Of a stretch of 64,000 nt of DNA, positions 14,100-63,124 are shown piece by piece. Source of the DNA: a virus; the IMG/VR virus record IMGVR_UViG_3300029267_000581, positions 1 to 64,000 of that record. One strand, 5' to 3'. Numbering within the stretch: the first letter of the stretch is position 1; each line of letters opens with the position of its first letter. The position numbers and the translations under genes were made by a program. The notes beneath the pieces are model-generated. The model ran no database searches, had not been told where the DNA came from, and saw nothing but the letters and a program-made list of their open reading frames with translations.

Positions 14100-14115
14100 G
14101 ATCTGACTCCGATCA
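14100..14115. repeat. Exact copy 1 of the dispersed 16-bp element GATCTGACTCCGATCA (minus strand TGATCGGAGTCAGATC, whose TGA is the tube stop codon)
   Basis: Identical 16-mer at 57931-57946. Confidence 0.9.
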
Positions 14116-53091: not shown

Positions 53092-53547
53092 TTACTCCGA
53101 CACCGGAAGCAAGACTTCCGCCTCTCCGTAGGTCCCATCAGGATTGATGACGGGCACACTCTCAGTAGTGAGGAAGGCATACAGCTCCGACTTGATACAC
53201 TCGTACATGGTCATGCCGGACGGAGGCGACATAGCGATACGCATGAAACCGTCGTAGGGGACAGTCTCCGTGCCGTCGTCGGGGCACACCGTCTCCAGAC
53301 CGTACCACTTCCCACACTCAGGGCACTTTCTGAGGGACCGTCCATTGTCGAGTGGGTGGTTGCCATCCTCGATCTTGAACTCCAGAGGAGGGCACATGGG
53401 ATTCGGAACAAACTCGTCTCCGTCCATTGTGCCCTCACAGACCCAGATGATGATCCACTGCTCGACGTTATCCTCAACCTTGAATGCCGCCACTTTCGCT
53501 GTGTCAGCGGGCGGCGGCACGATTGGATTCTTCAGCGGGACAGGCAT
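53092..53547 (-). CDS. Hypothetical protein with a CPECGKW...CPDDG zinc-ribbon-like segment
   Basis: 151-aa ORF. Confidence 0.5.
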   Translation of the reverse strand: MPVPLKNPIVPPPADTAKVAAFKVEDNVEQWIIIWVCEGTMDGDEFVPNPMCPPLEFKIEDGNHPLDNGRSLRKCPECGKWYGLETVCPDDGTETVPYDGFMRIAMSPPSGMTMYECIKSELYAFLTTESVPVINPDGTYGEAEVLLPVSE

Positions 53548-54799
53548 CTCTCCTCCTTCTCACCGCACGCTCATAGACCTCAAGCGTCTTGTCAGCGGCA
53601 ACATCCCATGTGAAATCCCGAACACGGCGCAGACCCAGTGCCCTGAGTTCCGCTCGAACCGTGCTCCTTCTAAGAACCTTCAGAGCCGCAAGGATGGCCT
53701 CGGGGCTCTCTGCTGGTATGATCATGGCGTACTCGTCCTCGCCGTCGCAGACGATCTCACCAAGACCATCTACCTCTGTTGCGATGAGAGGACAGCCCAT
53801 CGCCATAGCCTCCAAGGCAACGATACCGAAGGGCTCGTGAGTCGAGGGCATCAGTACACAGTCAGCCGCCGCGTACAGATCGCGCAAAGCCTGTCCGTGT
53901 TGGAACCCGACCCAGCGCAACCTCTCCGGGTGGGCGCTCTCCAACGCCTTTATGCGTTTAGTGACCTCCCACCTATCCTTGTCCTCCTCGGTATTTGCGT
54001 TGACCTCTCCAGCCAGGACTACTTGCCAACCTGGATCAGCGTACTCCAGAGCATCCAGAAGGTACGTGATCCCCTTCATCTCAGCAATTCGCCCAACGAA
54101 CAAAGCGATCAGCCTGCCGGGAACAGGGAAACCCTGAGAGAAGTGCAGAGAATGATCGTACACAGATCGCTCCCCATCCCCTGCGTCGGGATTCCACAGC
54201 TCCGTGTCGATGCCGTTGTAGATCATGTTGATCGGACGCTCCACAAGGAAGTGCTTACGAACTATGTCGACGTAAGCGTTACTGCACAGGATGAACTCGT
54301 CTGGGTCGCAGACGAGGTTACCTTCCTGTTGCATCATGTAGAGGTCGGCCTCACCCCAGCTAGCCGGGTTTGATGCCGGGTCCGAGATCATCGACAGGTA
54401 ACTTATACAGAGGTGCATCGTACCGACCAGAGGGAGCCCGAGGGCGTTCTGGCACAGGCGACCGAGCTGAACAGAGGTCCACTCGTGCATGTGGATCACG
54501 TCCCAGTCGCCACCGGCTCGTAGCCTGTCGGCAATAAGCCGTGTCAGAGCCTTCGCAACCTGGATGTCGTTGATGTACCTGCAACTGATGTCCGGTCGTC
54601 TCGGCTTCCAGCAAATCAGCTTGTCGTCGTGGTGTTTGCGGAAGCCGAGATAGTCCTTTGAACCGTCGAGTGTGCTGGAGGTTACGAGGTCCACGTCCAC
54701 ACCCTTCTTCGCAAGGGCTCTGTAGATCTCGCGGACGTGCATCCCCATACCGCCAAGAATCTCCTCGGGGTCCTCGTAGCAAATGGCAAGAACTCTCAT
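53504..54799 (-). CDS. GT-B fold glycosyltransferase, family 4-like
   Basis: MRVLAICYE...GGMGMHV N-terminus and the EPFGIVALEAMAMGCPLIAT E-x7-E motif. Confidence 0.8.
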   Translation of the reverse strand: MRVLAICYEDPEEILGGMGMHVREIYRALAKKGVDVDLVTSSTLDGSKDYLGFRKHHDDKLICWKPRRPDISCRYINDIQVAKALTRLIADRLRAGGDWDVIHMHEWTSVQLGRLCQNALGLPLVGTMHLCISYLSMISDPASNPASWGEADLYMMQQEGNLVCDPDEFILCSNAYVDIVRKHFLVERPINMIYNGIDTELWNPDAGDGERSVYDHSLHFSQGFPVPGRLIALFVGRIAEMKGITYLLDALEYADPGWQVVLAGEVNANTEEDKDRWEVTKRIKALESAHPERLRWVGFQHGQALRDLYAAADCVLMPSTHEPFGIVALEAMAMGCPLIATEVDGLGEIVCDGEDEYAMIIPAESPEAILAALKVLRRSTVRAELRALGLRRVRDFTWDVAADKTLEVYERAVRRRRDACPAEESNRAAAR

Positions 54800-55317
54800 G
54801 ACCATAGCTCCACTTCTCCTCGTGCGTCCAGCGTTCTGTTCCCAGCCGAGTAGTTCGTCCAGGTAAGACGCAAGACACGCGAAGATGGTCCTGTTGCGGG
54901 TAGATACGCCTCTGTCAGAGATATATCCGCCCCACCACTGCTGAACACTTTGTGGCTGAGATTCAGCGCAGCCGCCGCCTTGGTGTAGATGGCATTGTAC
55001 GAGGTAGAGATCAGGTTACCATGCCCACCAAGAGACATGGAAGAAGCCTCAAGAGAACTGCGCCCAACGACAACAAGAGCGCCAGCCATACCGCCAGCAA
55101 GTTCTGTCACACGGGCTGATCGAAGATGGATCACCGCAGCCACGATGTCGTAGGGCACCGAGATGTCCCAGTCGGAAGGCCCACCGGGCAGCGGTGGAAC
55201 TACCAGTGACGTATTGCTGATCGTCATGTTGTACGGACGTCGGTGGTGTTGTTCGGCAAGTACGTTCGACAAAGCCGAGTGGAGTGTAGGGTGCTCCAGA
55301 TATGACTGTAGCCTCAT
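54796..55317 (-). CDS. Small beta-rich protein, tandem paralogue 3 of 3 (fibre-tip/accessory candidate)
   Basis: 173 aa. It starts MRL, carries an N-terminal (E/D)(Q/D)HH motif and overlaps its neighbours by ATGA. Confidence 0.6.
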   Translation of the reverse strand: MRLQSYLEHPTLHSALSNVLAEQHHRRPYNMTISNTSLVVPPLPGGPSDWDISVPYDIVAAVIHLRSARVTELAGGMAGALVVVGRSSLEASSMSLGGHGNLISTSYNAIYTKAAAALNLSHKVFSSGGADISLTEAYLPATGPSSRVLRLTWTNYSAGNRTLDARGEVELWS

Positions 55318-57930: not shown

Positions 57931-57946
57931 GATCTGACTCCGATCA
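57931..57946. repeat. Exact copy 2 of the dispersed 16-bp element GATCTGACTCCGATCA. On the minus strand it reads TGA-TCGGAGTCAGATC-ATG and links the two fibre genes
   Basis: Identical to 14100-14115. Confidence 0.9.
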
Positions 57947-59693: not shown

Positions 59694-59710
59694 TGATCGG
59701 CGTCAGATCA
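59694..59710. repeat. Inverted-orientation copy of the dispersed element (TGATCGGCGTCAGATCA). The QueE stop codon lies in its arm
   Basis: Direct reading. It has 1 mismatch to the exact 16-mer when reverse-complemented. Confidence 0.7.
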
Positions 59711-60379
59711 TGGCATGTTCACGAACTTGTGCCACTGAATAGACAACCGGGGCATGAAGCCGAGAGCCATCTGAATGTGTTGTGAGCATCTGAGAGCCAT
59801 CGGGAGGCTCGACTTGATGCCGTCATCCCGCCACTCTGGCTGGATGCAGATTGTCTTCGTCATGACTCTTTTCAGCACCGCGCTCTTCGCGTCAGCGTTG
59901 GGCAGTATACTGAGAATGGAGTCCACAACAGCATCGTTACCAGGCCAACAGCCCGGCACGACGTATTTCAACTCGTCGATGTCGCCGCATCCAAGAACGA
60001 CGTCGGAGTCATGTTTCGGTGAGCACACAACGTGAGCGATACCTTTGAAGTGCCCAAGTACACCCCTGACAGCCCCGTTGGTCTCCAGCATGAACATACC
60101 AAACGTCTCGTTGCGCCACGCGGCTAGAACCTTCGCAAGTTCGATGTCCATGTGTAACAGAGGCTCCCCGCCAGTCAGCATGACAGCGGGGTACTTTCGC
60201 GGGAGGCGTTCTGCGAACTCGTCAGCGTCGAGAATGTACCTCGGGCGTGCAAGGTGTTCGTCACAGAATGGGCACGCGAGGTTACACCCAGCGAAGCGCA
60301 ACAGGCGTACAGGCCAACCTGACATGGCCCCCTCTGCCTGGTACGTGTCCACGATTTCCGATAGCTTGTATTTGCCCAC
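59708..60379 (-). CDS. queE: 7-carboxy-7-deazaguanine synthase (radical SAM QueE)
   Basis: EIVDTYQAEG, FAGCNLACPFCD and LTGGEPLL. The GTG start at 60379 lies 5 nt after GGAGG. Confidence 0.85.
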   Translation of the reverse strand: MGKYKLSEIVDTYQAEGAMSGWPVRLLRFAGCNLACPFCDEHLARPRYILDADEFAERLPRKYPAVMLTGGEPLLHMDIELAKVLAAWRNETFGMFMLETNGAVRGVLGHFKGIAHVVCSPKHDSDVVLGCGDIDELKYVVPGCWPGNDAVVDSILSILPNADAKSAVLKRVMTKTICIQPEWRDDGIKSSLPMALRCSQHIQMALGFMPRLSIQWHKFVNMP

Positions 60380-60461
60380 ATTACCTCCAATGGAACACGT
60401 AGGGGGCGCAGCCAAAGCCGCGCCCCCTACACGTAGTTTGCACAAAGCGATCCGACACAGA

Positions 60462-60842
60462 TCAGATGATGACCAGTGCGTCGATGTCGTCGGCGAGGGT
60501 GTTCAGATCCGCATCGACGCCGATGGTGAACTTCTCGTCGCCGAGAGTGATGCAGTCGGCGGCGGTCCAGGCGGCGGCAGCCACAACCTTCATGGCCGAA
60601 GCGGCGGGCATCCCCTTGATGTGGAAAGCCATCGCGTTCTGGGTGCGGTTGAACAGAATGACTCCGCGAGGGTCACCCTGCGTCTCCACGTCGAGCAGCG
60701 CCCCTGTCCCCGCGATGCCGGTGATGAACTCGACCTGACCGACGTTGGTCAGTGCCTTCATGAGAGGGCGAACGTCGGCATACGGCTTGACGGTGTCGGC
60801 GTCCATCGAGTTGAGAACGTCGCGCATGATGTCGTCGGACAT
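60462..60842 (-). CDS. Hypothetical protein between QueE and the ParB-fold gene
   Basis: 126-aa ORF. Confidence 0.5.
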   Translation of the reverse strand: MSDDIMRDVLNSMDADTVKPYADVRPLMKALTNVGQVEFITGIAGTGALLDVETQGDPRGVILFNRTQNAMAFHIKGMPAASAMKVVAAAAWTAADCITLGDEKFTIGVDADLNTLADDIDALVII

Positions 60843-60882: not shown

Positions 60883-61734
60883 TTACTTGTCTTTGCCGAA
60901 GTATTGCTTTATCAGCTTTACGACAGCGCCCGCACGGGTTTCCTCGGCCATGGCTTCACACAGGTCTTCGAGCATGTCTTCGATTTCGTCTGTCCCCGGA
61001 AGGGACAACATGATGGGCATACCCCGAGATGACTCTTTGAGCTGCGTAGAACCACCACCTTCGGCCTCAGCACCAAATCCTCCGATGGAGCTGAAGTCGA
61101 TGTTGCTGAACATATCTTCGTCCGTACCTTCGTCGGAACCTGACCCTGCACCTCCTCCCAACGAGCCCATAGGGGCGAGCGGCTTCAAAGTGCCAGCCTC
61201 GTCAGCACCCACGACGCCGAGTAGCTCTTCCAAAGCATCCTTGTCGCGTGCAGTAGCCGTCGCGATCTCGTTGATCGGAATCTGATCGTCTCGCATCTCG
61301 CGAAGGACCTCGAAAAAGCCCTTCTCGTCCAATTCAGCACTTACGTTGAAACTGAACATAGCAAGGTCGGCGTCAGCCGGAGACACAGATTGACCTTGCT
61401 TGTCAGTGAGAACAACGACCGGAACGGTATCGTATCCACGAGTGCTCAGTTCGTCGATACGGTGGTGCCCGTCGATAAGCTCCCACTCACCAGACGTCTT
61501 GCCTGGAATGACAATGACTGGATCACGAGGTCCGAGCCTGCCGATGGAGTCTTTGAGAGCCTGGAGCTGCAAGTCATCCATCTTACGAAAGCGTGTCTTC
61601 CGCTGCTTGATTGACTTGATGTAGACCTCACCGATCTGCAAGCCGGTCTCAAGCTCGACAAACTCATTCACAGCGAGTTTGCGAGCAGCCTTACTCGTGG
61701 TCTTCTTTTTCTTCTTTTTGCCCGCCTTCTTCAT
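60883..61734 (-). CDS. ParB/Srx-fold N-terminal domain protein (DGHHR motif) with an acidic Gly-rich C-terminal half
   Basis: PVIVIPGKTSGEWELIDGHHRIDEL follows the ParB-like nuclease-domain pattern. It has an ATGA overlap with the DpdA-like gene. Confidence 0.7.
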   Translation of the reverse strand: MKKAGKKKKKKTTSKAARKLAVNEFVELETGLQIGEVYIKSIKQRKTRFRKMDDLQLQALKDSIGRLGPRDPVIVIPGKTSGEWELIDGHHRIDELSTRGYDTVPVVVLTDKQGQSVSPADADLAMFSFNVSAELDEKGFFEVLREMRDDQIPINEIATATARDKDALEELLGVVGADEAGTLKPLAPMGSLGGGAGSGSDEGTDEDMFSNIDFSSIGGFGAEAEGGGSTQLKESSRGMPIMLSLPGTDEIEDMLEDLCEAMAEETRAGAVVKLIKQYFGKDK

Positions 61735-62774
61735 CTGACCCTTCTCCGTGGGGGTGCCACAACAGCGTGCCGAGGATTCCAGTTGTCCTCACCCTCGCCC
61801 AACTGCTCCGCCCAGTTGATACCTTTGTTCCGCCAGTACGCAGTAAACCAAGACTCCATGTCGGCAAAGACCTTGGCCTGGTCGAGGAAGATTGCCACGT
61901 TGTTTATCTTCCTCTTACCATCTGCATCCTTACGGCCAGTAATATCCAGAAGACTCAGGCGGCACCCATGACGCTGTAGCTTGCTGAGATTCTTAGCGGC
62001 GGCTGTCCAACCTTTGCGCTGGACGAACCCCCTACCTAGATCAACCCGCACAAGCTCTCCTCTGGTACGGTCAAAAGCTAATGCACCCCCGAAGTGGAGC
62101 GCCTGTTGCCAGGAGACAGAGTCAACACTGTAGAAGGGCACAGCCTTCAAGGCCGATGTCCGAGTAACTGCGTACCCGTGAATCCTGACGTCATTGTGGT
62201 AGCACTCTAACGCCAAGTCCTTCATCTCTGTGTAGTATGCCTCCTGGGTTCCCCACTGTTCCTTTATCAGCTTCTTGCTGTAAGCCATGGAGACACCGAG
62301 ATAGTGGCACCACTCCTCCGAAAGAAGGCTCCACACACTCTCCGTGCCGTGCCAAGCGAAGACGACAGGAATACCAGTCTGGTCCTGAAAGGGCAGAGCG
62401 TAGTTGTCCCGCCAGTCGTCGATGACCTCCTGCCCGTAGATGTCAGGAAGGTCCAACTCAGCAACAGCCTTCAGGGGAAAGCCCTGCTCGTGTAGCCAAA
62501 GACAGCTCCCGAAGTGGGAGCGCACTACTTCCGTGGCCTCGGCGACGGTGGGGAGCTTGTCGTGCTTGTAGTAAGCGGAGCGAATGATGAATGCGCCCGA
62601 GTCAACGAAAAGTGATCTGGGGTAGATCGCATGGCACGCTTTGGCGATGATCCTGGCCCGAGCACCTGGCTTGCCGTTGGCAGTGAGTAGGAGCCTCACA
62701 GAAAAGTCCGTTTTGCCGACATTCTTGTAACGAGACACCACGGGCGATGCCTCGTCCGCGATGTAGACTTTCAA
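61731..62774 (-). CDS. dpdA: DpdA-like DNA guanine transglycosylase (TGT superfamily)
   Basis: FVDSGAFII matches the DSGGFQ/DSGAF catalytic region of TGT/DpdA. RIHGYAVT...FYSVDSVSW resembles the second TGT Asp region. The portion of the ORF upstream of 62774 overlaps QueD and is Arg-rich junk. A TTG at 62774 is the only candidate start. Confidence 0.7.
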   Translation of the reverse strand: MKVYIADEASPVVSRYKNVGKTDFSVRLLLTANGKPGARARIIAKACHAIYPRSLFVDSGAFIIRSAYYKHDKLPTVAEATEVVRSHFGSCLWLHEQGFPLKAVAELDLPDIYGQEVIDDWRDNYALPFQDQTGIPVVFAWHGTESVWSLLSEEWCHYLGVSMAYSKKLIKEQWGTQEAYYTEMKDLALECYHNDVRIHGYAVTRTSALKAVPFYSVDSVSWQQALHFGGALAFDRTRGELVRVDLGRGFVQRKGWTAAAKNLSKLQRHGCRLSLLDITGRKDADGKRKINNVAIFLDQAKVFADMESWFTAYWRNKGINWAEQLGEGEDNWNPRHAVVAPPRRRVR

Positions 62775-63124
62775 AGGCTCCTGCCGATCTCGGTCTCGGC
62801 GTAAGAGTTGCCCCCTTCGTACAGCCGAACCCTGACGCGATGGATGTGCTCTCCGAGCGACAGAGCGTTCATCGCAAGGAACCTCGACAGATTCTCGGCT
62901 GTCGGAATACTCGCAGTGAGAATCTCGTTGAGATCCTTGTGGTCGAGCTGCTTGACCAGGGCTTTCACATCGTGGAAGTCCACGATCATGCCGTTCTCTT
63001 GGACCTCCCCCTCCACCCTGATGCTGACACTGTACGTATGTCCGTGAACTACCCCGCACTTGTCGTGACCGGGGAGATGATGGGCGGCGTCAAACTTGCC
63101 CTCCCATGTGACTGATGTTCTCAT
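62771..63124 (-). CDS. queD: 6-carboxy-5,6,7,8-tetrahydropterin synthase (QueD/PTPS)
   Basis: FDAAHHLPGHDKCGVVHGHTY is the QueD signature. AGGAGG lies upstream of the ATG at 63124. Confidence 0.85.
   Translation of the reverse strand: MRTSVTWEGKFDAAHHLPGHDKCGVVHGHTYSVSIRVEGEVQENGMIVDFHDVKALVKQLDHKDLNEILTASIPTAENLSRFLAMNALSLGEHIHRVRVRLYEGGNSYAETEIGRSL

Follow-up and report, generated by a model that had tools for sequence, protein, structure and literature searches.

What does a ParB-like protein do when its gene overlaps that of a DNA-modifying enzyme? The question is raised by a 64,000-nucleotide stretch of viral DNA (positions 1 to 64,000 of IMG/VR record IMGVR_UViG_3300029267_000581; hereafter the window), in which an open reading frame (ORF) for a 283-amino-acid (aa) protein with a ParB-type core begins within the end of a gene for a DpdA-like DNA-guanine transglycosylase. 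The window is part of a genome that is complete at 87,079 bp, has direct terminal repeats and continues beyond the window at genome 64001-87079; the phage carries the 7-deazaguanine genes FolE2, QueD, QueE and QueC. The original prediction proposed that the ORF encodes a phage counterpart of the bacterial protein DpdB. We find that the ParB-like protein is real and is probably a functional partner of DpdA, analogous but not orthologous to DpdB. That it is a stand-alone ParB-superfamily protein working with phage DpdA is the reading we favour, with moderate confidence.

Both predicted features of the gene were borne out by the bases: the ORF lies at 60883-61734 on the minus strand with DGHHR at residues 88-92 of a product that contains GEWELIDGHHRIDEL, and its ATG overlaps the DpdA stop codon as ATGA at 61731-61734. 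A Shine-Dalgarno sequence (GGAG/AAGGG) is located 6-14 nt 5' of this ATG, within the end of the DpdA gene. With a second junction, TTGA, between QueD and DpdA, the three genes QueD, DpdA and ParB-like are therefore chained by 4-nt overlaps. The features concerned are as follows.

60883..61734, minus strand: ParB-like (DGHHR) gene, 283 aa (ORF, Pfam ParB_N, PHROG, family profile, AF2 model, ratio of nonsynonymous to synonymous substitution rates, dN/dS)
61731..62774, minus strand: DpdA (DNA-guanine transglycosylase family), 347 aa, TTG start (phrog_887, profiles, model)
62771..63124, minus strand: QueD, 117 aa as called (Pfam PTPS 2.3e-24, TIGR03367)
61731..61734, minus strand: ATGA overlap of DpdA stop and ParB-like start (read directly from the bases)
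62771-62774, minus strand: TTGA overlap of QueD stop and DpdA start (read directly from the bases)

The ParB-like gene is under purifying selection. Compared with a relative of 88% identity, dN/dS was 0.07 overall; it was highest in the linker (0.15), lower in the N-terminal part (0.06) and lowest in the C-terminal tail (0.02; parts defined below).

The ParB-fold protein and its DpdA neighbour

The ParB/Srx (sulfiredoxin) N-domain of the protein is more than a chance motif. The single sequence matched Pfam ParB_N at E=1.4e-5 (25.5 bits, 0.8 bit under the cut-off of 26.3) and PHROG ParB-like families at best at 1.5e-11, and gave weak NCBIfam matches to Noc, ParB, SerK and SbnI. The family profile built from 42 members matched solved structures of Noc (3e-11) and ParB (1e-9), and also of SerK, Spo0J, SbnI, sulfiredoxin and KorB. 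Similarly, the individual members matched NCBIfam models of Noc (36 members), SerK (33), ParB (32) and PRTRC ParB (24), plus RepB and SbnI. In the 42-sequence alignment G68, D88-G89-H90-H91-R92, P105 and N130 (within DLAMLSFNVSAE) were invariant. The N-domain carries recognizable boxes (I-like RKTRFRKM, II-like DGHHR, III-like LAMFSFNVSAE), and DGHHR aligned on GERR of box II and FN on EN of box III of Noc/ParB, so that G89, R92 and N130 are kept. The AF2 model had a mean pLDDT (predicted local distance difference test score) of 82, exceeding 90 over residues 20-175 and again confident over 240-280. With this model Foldseek returned ParB, Noc, PadC, KorB, Srx, SerK and SbnI at probability 1.0, over ~145 columns that correspond to the N-domain plus the helices resembling a helix-turn-helix (HTH).

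The relatives on which these alignments rest surfaced through an exhaustive HMMER search of 1.84 billion representatives, which gave 110 relatives, about 60 of them of 200-285 aa, and through alignment-based locus scans. Neither tblastn of the protein against 50,697 cultured-phage records nor a single-sequence scan of viral contigs returned anything, and a word-indexed protein search returned 3 proteins.

From the model and alignments the protein is predicted to consist of four parts, a ParB/Srx N-domain, an HTH-like region, an acidic linker and a short tail resembling a ribbon-helix-helix (RHH), preceded by a Lys-rich extension.

61678..61734, minus strand: Lys-rich N-terminal tail, residues 1-19, MKKAGKKKKKKTTSKAARK (read from the sequence; Lys-rich in relatives too; lower model confidence)
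61345..61677, minus strand: ParB/Srx N-terminal domain, residues about 20-130 (invariant residues, Noc/ParB box alignment, pLDDT >90)
61459..61473, minus strand: DGHHR motif, residues 88-92, GAC GGG CAC CAC CGT (invariant in 42 family members)
61222..61326, minus strand: HTH-resembling helical region, residues 137-171, IPINEIATATARDKDALEELLG (AF2 helices 137-149, 154-161, 165-171)
61021..61209, minus strand: acidic Gly-rich disordered linker, residues 176-238 (pLDDT 40-53; length varies among relatives)
60895..61020, minus strand: C-terminal strand-helix-helix tail, residues 239-280, SRGMPIMLSLPGTDEIEDMLEDLCEAMAEETRAGAVVKLIKQYF (pLDDT 90-98; helices 249-261, 267-278)

The region IPINEIATATARDKDALEELLG aligned with the HTH of Noc in the profile comparison and with that of the phage's own canonical ParB by hhalign. 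Despite this short segment, Pfam HTH_ParB did not match the protein.

The upstream neighbour, which the original prediction called DpdA-like, is by its profile matches a true DpdA relative. Its product matched phrog_887 (annotated as queuine tRNA-ribosyltransferase) at 5.9e-12, and a 47-sequence profile of the family matched the DpdAs of phages BCD7 (5e-63), 9g (7e-25), CAjan (8e-22) and Rosebush (2e-14). The BCD7 protein, YP_007005872, is listed as DpdA in the supplement of Hutinet et al. 2019 (PMC6884629). The model is a confident (beta/alpha)8 TIM barrel (pLDDT 89), and the motifs DSG, H142, H199 and SxD are invariant. Pfam gave no tRNA-guanine transglycosylase (TGT) match, the DpdA-alignment profile found nothing among PDB sequences, and Foldseek of the model against the PDB returned generic TIM barrels alone (E ~1e-3), with no TGT or DpdA as top fold. 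Because these structural comparisons were uninformative, the identity of the gene rests on the profile matches to published phage DpdAs.

Pairing of ParB-fold genes with DpdA across phages

Conservation of the pair was examined from both sides. The DpdA-centred sample comprised the best 80 of 237 loci, with 18-36% identity to the window's DpdA, grouped into 69 clusters at 90% identity. ParB-fold genes were found with a local profile that was iterated once and then converged, and which includes Rosebush gp1. Pfam ParB_N misses Rosebush gp1 and all five cultured-phage genomes tested; Pfam alone therefore undercounts ParB-fold partners. The position of the ParB-fold gene in the 69 clusters was as follows.

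Immediately downstream of DpdA: 29 clusters
Immediately upstream of DpdA: 15 clusters
Elsewhere within 4 kb, same strand: 9 clusters
Not found near DpdA: 16 clusters

Where a ParB-fold gene was present (53 clusters), it thus occupied one of the two slots adjacent to DpdA in 44. In most downstream cases the two genes overlap, since the ParB-fold homology starts ahead of the DpdA stop. Two tandem ParB-fold genes follow DpdA in four loci (L029, L130, L141 and L150).

The ParB-centred sample was obtained by scanning viral and metagenome contigs with the family alignments, which gave 87 loci, 55 of them with strong family members. Twenty-six of these 55 lie directly after DpdA; for 20, the available upstream sequence (at least 1.1 kb) contains no DpdA; and 9 could be placed in neither class. 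After removal of near-duplicates, 19 of 39 non-redundant members were directly after DpdA, and these cluster on the tree (4-5 label changes for the 39 rows, compared with 13-16 in shuffles). Among the relatives nearest to the window the order QueD-DpdA-ParB-like-124/126 aa-QueE-...-FolE2 is kept in L001 (58% identity), L007 and L008 (~42%), and it persists even without the window's two fibre genes.

The C-terminal tail follows the DpdA context. All 17 full-length family members adjacent to DpdA have the window-type (type-1) tail, against none of the 16 DpdA-less members; two further DpdA-adjacent members, cut by contig ends, are outside this count. The tail-negative set includes three members (L016, L018, L022) that grouped with the DpdA-linked half in the first tree. 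On a tree of 148 core columns the context label changed 3 times, with the tail switching in the same direction each time. In a sign test these amount to 1-3 independent events, too few for significance. The last 45 residues (SRGMPIMLSLPGTDE...AVVKLIKQYF) show the strand, helix, G/T-x-S/T, helix pattern of ribbon-helix-helix proteins, and the tail profile weakly matched the antitoxins VapB15 (E=0.03) and VapB11 (E=0.32), which we take to have the ribbon-helix-helix fold. These matches are suggestive of a ribbon-helix-helix-like tail. In more distant ParB-fold proteins adjacent to DpdA the tails are also short but of other kinds, many again strand-helix-helix-like and others CxxC zinc-ribbon-like. 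The picture that emerges from the alignments is of a shared ParB-fold core with exchangeable tails.

The DpdAs that lack a ParB-fold neighbour have an addition of their own. All of those examined (9 queries from the 16 clusters) were accompanied by an extra module of about 200-400 aa that matches positions 330-500, the C-terminal third, of phrog_887; two of the modules weakly match a small-terminase PHROG. The module is fused in long DpdAs, as in BCD7 gp021 (L094, 757 aa), L106, L118, L125 and L109, and is a separate next gene of ~250 aa in L095 (Bacteroides phage BS162P1), L110, L123 and L145. Judged by these arrangements it looks like a split or fused accessory domain, which suggests that the catalytic core of DpdA generally needs an accessory part.

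Downstream of the ParB-like gene, the window continues with two further genes on the same strand.

60462..60842, minus strand: 126-aa ORF between the ParB-like gene and QueE (six-lineage clade of the window only)
59708..60445, minus strand: QueE, radical SAM 7-carboxy-7-deazaguanine synthase (library matches in Pfam, PHROG and NCBIfam)

The 126-aa ORF had no match in Pfam, PHROG or NCBIfam, and its homologues are limited to L001-L008 and L035-L037. It was considered as a general third partner and rejected, being confined to the window's clade and, by hhalign, unrelated to the downstream ORFs of other clades. Glycosyltransferases also occur at these loci. One of 370-420 aa lies directly upstream of DpdA in L017, L020/L021, L023 and L029 (Pfam Glycos_transf_1 matched weakly in the one representative tested, L029), and a GT4 gene of the window (53504-54805) shares the transcription unit with the DpdA and ParB-like genes. 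The upstream glycosyltransferases may further decorate the modified base or the DNA.

Relation to DpdB, Rosebush gp1 and canonical ParB proteins

Bacterial DpdA needs the ParB-fold protein DpdB, whose ATPase activity is required for preQ0 insertion; DpdB of Salmonella Montevideo is a dimer (~45 kDa) with a ParB-fold N-domain, a DGQQR motif and a large SspE-homologous alpha-helical C-domain (PMC10164549). The window protein resembles it in belonging to the ParB superfamily, in being encoded next to dpdA and in its functional position. It differs in having DGHHR within 283 aa, whereas the DGQQR of DpdB places that protein in the DGQHR/DndB subgroup. It also lacks an SspE-like C-domain: residue 175 is followed by the disordered linker and the ~42-aa tail, and its structural matches are Noc, ParB, KorB and PadC, not SspE. 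Searches at E<=0.1 with the protein in NCBIfam and PADLOC, and with the 42 family members in NCBIfam, gave no DGQHR, DndB or DpdB match. The remote-homology comparison called for by the original prediction thus returned Noc, ParB and KorB but neither DpdB nor DndB. The proposal of a phage DpdB counterpart is strongly supported as far as a coupled ParB-fold partner of DpdA is concerned (adjacency in 44 of 69 clusters, the tail in 17/17 versus 0/16, the Rosebush gp1/gp2 pair described below) and fails as a claim of homology to DpdB/DndB (DGHHR, 0/42 model matches, no SspE-like C-domain). Its profile matches place the protein on the Noc/ParB-like side of the superfamily.

Profile and fold comparisons gave as best matches the chromosomal and plasmid CTP-dependent clamps ParB, Noc and KorB, with which the window protein shares the succession of N-domain, HTH or HTH-like segment, flexible linker and small C-terminal domain. 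It departs from them in that GERRxRA is replaced by DGHHR and the E-N of box III by F-N, the HTH is truncated and no ParA accompanies it. Box I reads RKTRFRKM, without the catalytic Gln of canonical ParB CTPases.

The closest described case is the gp1/gp2 pair of Mycobacterium phage Rosebush. Like the window, Rosebush has a ParB-fold gene and DpdA on the same strand in a FolE/QueD/QueE/QueC cluster, and 28% of the G in its DNA is replaced by dPreQ0 (PMC6884629). Rosebush gp1, annotated as a ParB-like partition protein, matched phrog_723 at 4e-65, and its gene overlaps that of gp2 (DpdA) by 4 nt. Similar ParB-fold/DpdA pairs are Bipper gp1/gp3 and CRB2 ORF1/ORF2; CRB2 ORF1 has been suggested in passing as a possible dpdB homologue (PMC6392294). 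Bipper gp1 is also of ParB fold, and the gp1 proteins of Rosebush and Bipper both have an N-domain, an acidic linker and a strand-helix-helix tail. Unlike in the window, ParB is upstream of DpdA in Rosebush, its box II is AGNHT rather than DGHHR, it has no HTH-like region comparable to residues 137-171, and the similarity emerged after one profile iteration. The DpdA-associated ParB-fold type that Rosebush gp1 represents is not a named family in print; the window protein has both traits of the type, a ParB-fold gene directly beside dpdA on the same strand and the layout of N-domain, acidic linker and short strand-helix-helix tail. The two main phage papers on this modification make no mention of ParB; DpdB is absent from one of them and is named once, for bacteria, in the other.

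Small ParB N-domains, fused or adjacent, accompany many unrelated phage DNA-modifying enzymes, including methyltransferases and CmoX, and the role of this module is described in print as unknown (PMC12783734). The likeness to the window is that of a small ParB N-domain beside a DNA base-modifying enzyme; in the window, however, the module forms a protein by itself, complete with a tail, and its enzyme neighbour is a transglycosylase, not a methyl- or carboxymethyl-transferase. Matches of this kind were seen for the window protein: its sole PADLOC match was to the ParB N-part of a methyltransferase model (MTase_II), and phrog_498 also matches the N-domain. The original prediction had named placement with ParB-methyltransferase-type proteins as grounds against partnership; that does not apply here, as these matches reflect the shared ParB N-domain.

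A probable partner of DpdA and the alternatives

How could such a protein work with DpdA? The two would be translated in a coupled manner from one transcript, QueD-TTGA-DpdA-ATGA-ParB-like. The N-domain keeps the glycine, arginine and asparagine of the nucleotide pocket (DGHHR; FN130), and together with the HTH-like segment it would form a core that engages DNA, probably as a nucleotide-regulated dimer like ParB, Noc, KorB and DpdB. The DpdA-specific tail might either couple the DNA-bound module to DpdA or confer DNA specificity, and we regard it as the probable coupling element. The outcome would be that exchange of guanine for a preQ0-type 7-deazaguanine is stimulated and directed onto phage DNA. 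In this scheme we infer a physical interaction, nucleotide use, stimulation of DpdA and site specificity of the ParB-like protein.

Several observations weigh against partnership or restrict its scope. The DpdA of 9g (with Gat-QueC) and the DpdA2 of nt-1 and VH7D modify E. coli DNA without a ParB-like protein (PMC6884629), and the DpdA neighbour in 9g, CAjan, RHEph04, Me-ZS1 and BA3 is a sliding-clamp gene, not ParB. The arginine patch GERR has become GHHR and the box III glutamate F/S (F129), so CTP hydrolysis by the ParB-like protein is not to be assumed. Adjacency alone defines no mechanism, because ParB N-domains adjoin unrelated DNA-modifying enzymes. Sixteen non-redundant members of a sister group have no DpdA nearby and are instead positioned after SbcD/SbcC, and in seven genomes with such relatives, each at least 90% complete, there was no match to the DpdA profile, phrog_887 or QueC. 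The core therefore has a role independent of DpdA. In the window's own genome just four small genes separate SbcCD from the QueD-DpdA-ParB-like genes downstream of it, so some of the synteny could be a leftover of an ancestral arrangement rather than functional.

As to the phages with a sliding clamp, the Queuovirinae-like phages 9g (L179), CAjan (L180), RHEph04 (L183), Me-ZS1 (L184) and vB_VpS_BA3 (L185) all have DpdA followed, either immediately or after 1-2 small ORFs, by the gene for the DNA polymerase sliding clamp and then by that for the polymerase. In most phages examined DpdA thus adjoins a DNA clamp of some kind, beta-clamp or ParB-fold.

The alternative that survives best, although we consider it unlikely, is that the gene belongs to core replication and recombination functions, where its ParB-like product would act with RecA and the SMC-like nuclease SbcCD, and that the deazaguanine genes happened to be inserted alongside. 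SbcC is directly upstream in 15 of the 20 DpdA-less loci, in some abutting or overlapping the ParB-like gene, and the family also occurs in complete genomes that have neither DpdA nor QueC. The minus-strand order of the window's genome is canonical ParB, a 139-aa ORF, RecA, SbcD, SbcC, four small ORFs and then QueD-DpdA-ParB-like, as this explanation would have it. In contrast, the DpdA-centred loci have a ParB-fold neighbour in 53 of 69 clusters and SbcC close by in just 2; SbcC is absent near the DpdA-linked subclades L017, L020, L023, L039, L046 and L050; and the type of tail changes according to whether DpdA is present. The sister group (L009-L022, L042-L055) has a different, longer C-terminal domain (KK.P.lK.vvL...), and its protein may be a ParB-like factor acting with SbcCD. 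A divergent DpdA or other enzyme hidden upstream of the DpdA-less members was considered and rejected, as their upstream genes gave no Pfam or PHROG match and shared no family except SbcC. Inteins of the HINT type interrupt genes in related phages, namely a helicase (L032 6257-8086; Pfam ResIII, PT-HINT, Intein_splicing) and an SbcC-like gene (L001 2319-4412; Hom_end_hint).

The protein might instead be a transcriptional regulator that acts, like KorB or DndB, on the modification operon or on phage genes and not on DpdA itself; in our view this is more doubtful still. The HTH-like and RHH-like segments would suit it, KorB is among the structural matches, and DndB provides a precedent as a ParB-fold protein that regulates the dnd operon (PMC5699537). 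However, the gene sits mid-operon with its translation coupled to that of the enzyme, the pairing persists in both gene orders and in operons of very different layout, and the invariant pocket residues of the N-domain would be needless for a plain repressor.

More specific than the partnership itself, and a doubtful extension of it, is a model built on a dispersed palindrome that the original prediction had noted as a 16-bp element. The element is real. It reads GATC-N7-GATC, with the consensus (T/C)GATC-kGAnTCm-GATC(A/G), and occurs 53 times in the window (for example at 14100-14114, 57931-57945 and 61273-61287), where any other GATC-GATC spacing occurs 1-6 times, and 77 times in the genome. 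Forty-four of the 53 window copies are inside ORFs, one of them in the ParB-like gene itself.

61273..61287, no strand: GATC-N7-GATC palindrome copy inside the ParB-like gene (1 of 77 genome copies)

The copies are spaced far more evenly than random (coefficient of variation 0.53 versus 0.99, P<5e-5), with a median of 1.13 kb, a minimum of 251 bp and a maximum of 3.96 kb. The enrichment is limited to the window's six-lineage clade and is not seen in other DpdA-ParB phages. In the extended model, which we put forward at long odds, the ParB-like protein would nucleate on the 77 TGATC-N7-GATCA palindromes (~1 per 1.1 kb) and serve as a nucleotide-gated DNA clamp or loader, carrying or activating DpdA via its RHH-like tail, so that 7-deazaguanine would be written processively and on phage DNA only; most phage DpdAs would then be two-component enzymes, with the ParB-fold core shared and the tail exchanged per partner. 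The same genome encodes a canonical ParB of 396 aa (genome 69594-70784, minus strand; L181:5594-6784) that matches ParB_N (5e-15) and HTH_ParB (7e-9), has the motifs GFRRFEA and LLENLGRE and Lys-rich tails, and lies upstream of RecA-SbcD-SbcC. With its full HTH_ParB it is an equally good or better candidate binder of the palindromes than the DGHHR protein; some other HTH protein is a further candidate.

A second peculiarity of the genome concerns TTAA, which is by far the most avoided 4-mer (0 in 87,079 bp versus ~165 expected from base composition). Guanine modification would be unable to protect TTAA, because the site contains no G or C, and its absence suggests that restriction by a TTAA-specific host enzyme has driven the site from the genome.

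Quite improbable is a restriction-modification-like pair in which the protein is a ParB-like nuclease against unmodified (host) DNA and DpdA protects the phage DNA. A modifying enzyme with a second DNA-acting protein suits that logic, the sister group lies beside the SbcCD nuclease, ParBc_2 ('ParB-like nuclease') matched weakly (E=0.013) and some matching PHROG families are labelled nuclease; against this, no nuclease motif or metal-binding site was identified in the protein, and its best matches are the clamp-type ParB/Noc/KorB/PadC and kinase-type SerK/SbnI. A classical ParABS centromere-binding protein for a plasmid-like prophage state is scarcely credible: the ParB fold and the many dispersed palindromes speak for it, but a ParA-type ATPase is absent (neither PF13614 nor PF01656 matched anything in the complete 87-kb genome), the GERR patch is missing, a separate canonical ParB is present, and 77 sites at ~1.1-kb spacing are unlike a centromere.

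We conclude that DpdA and the ParB-like protein are encoded as a real and conserved pair, a phage version of the principle of DpdA plus a ParB-fold protein, in which the mechanism and the necessity of the partner are what we infer. The principal papers on the 7-deazaguanine modification of phage DNA regard DpdA as the sole DNA-acting component, and Cellulophaga phage phiSM DpdA1, DpdA3 and DpdA4 showed no activity by themselves in E. coli. Should a ParB-fold helper be needed by most DpdAs outside the Queuovirinae, this would give a concrete reason for the failed reconstitution of several phage DpdAs in E. coli, and the palindrome-clamp, two-component model would, if true, likewise explain why several are inactive alone. 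The perfect correlation between tail type and DpdA singles out the tail as a testable handle. With its two small proteins, such a partnership would also offer a tractable system for the long-standing question of the role of the stand-alone or fused ParB N-domains found beside DNA-modifying enzymes, and it would mean that the bacterial DpdA-DpdB principle reaches phages via a different branch of the ParB superfamily.

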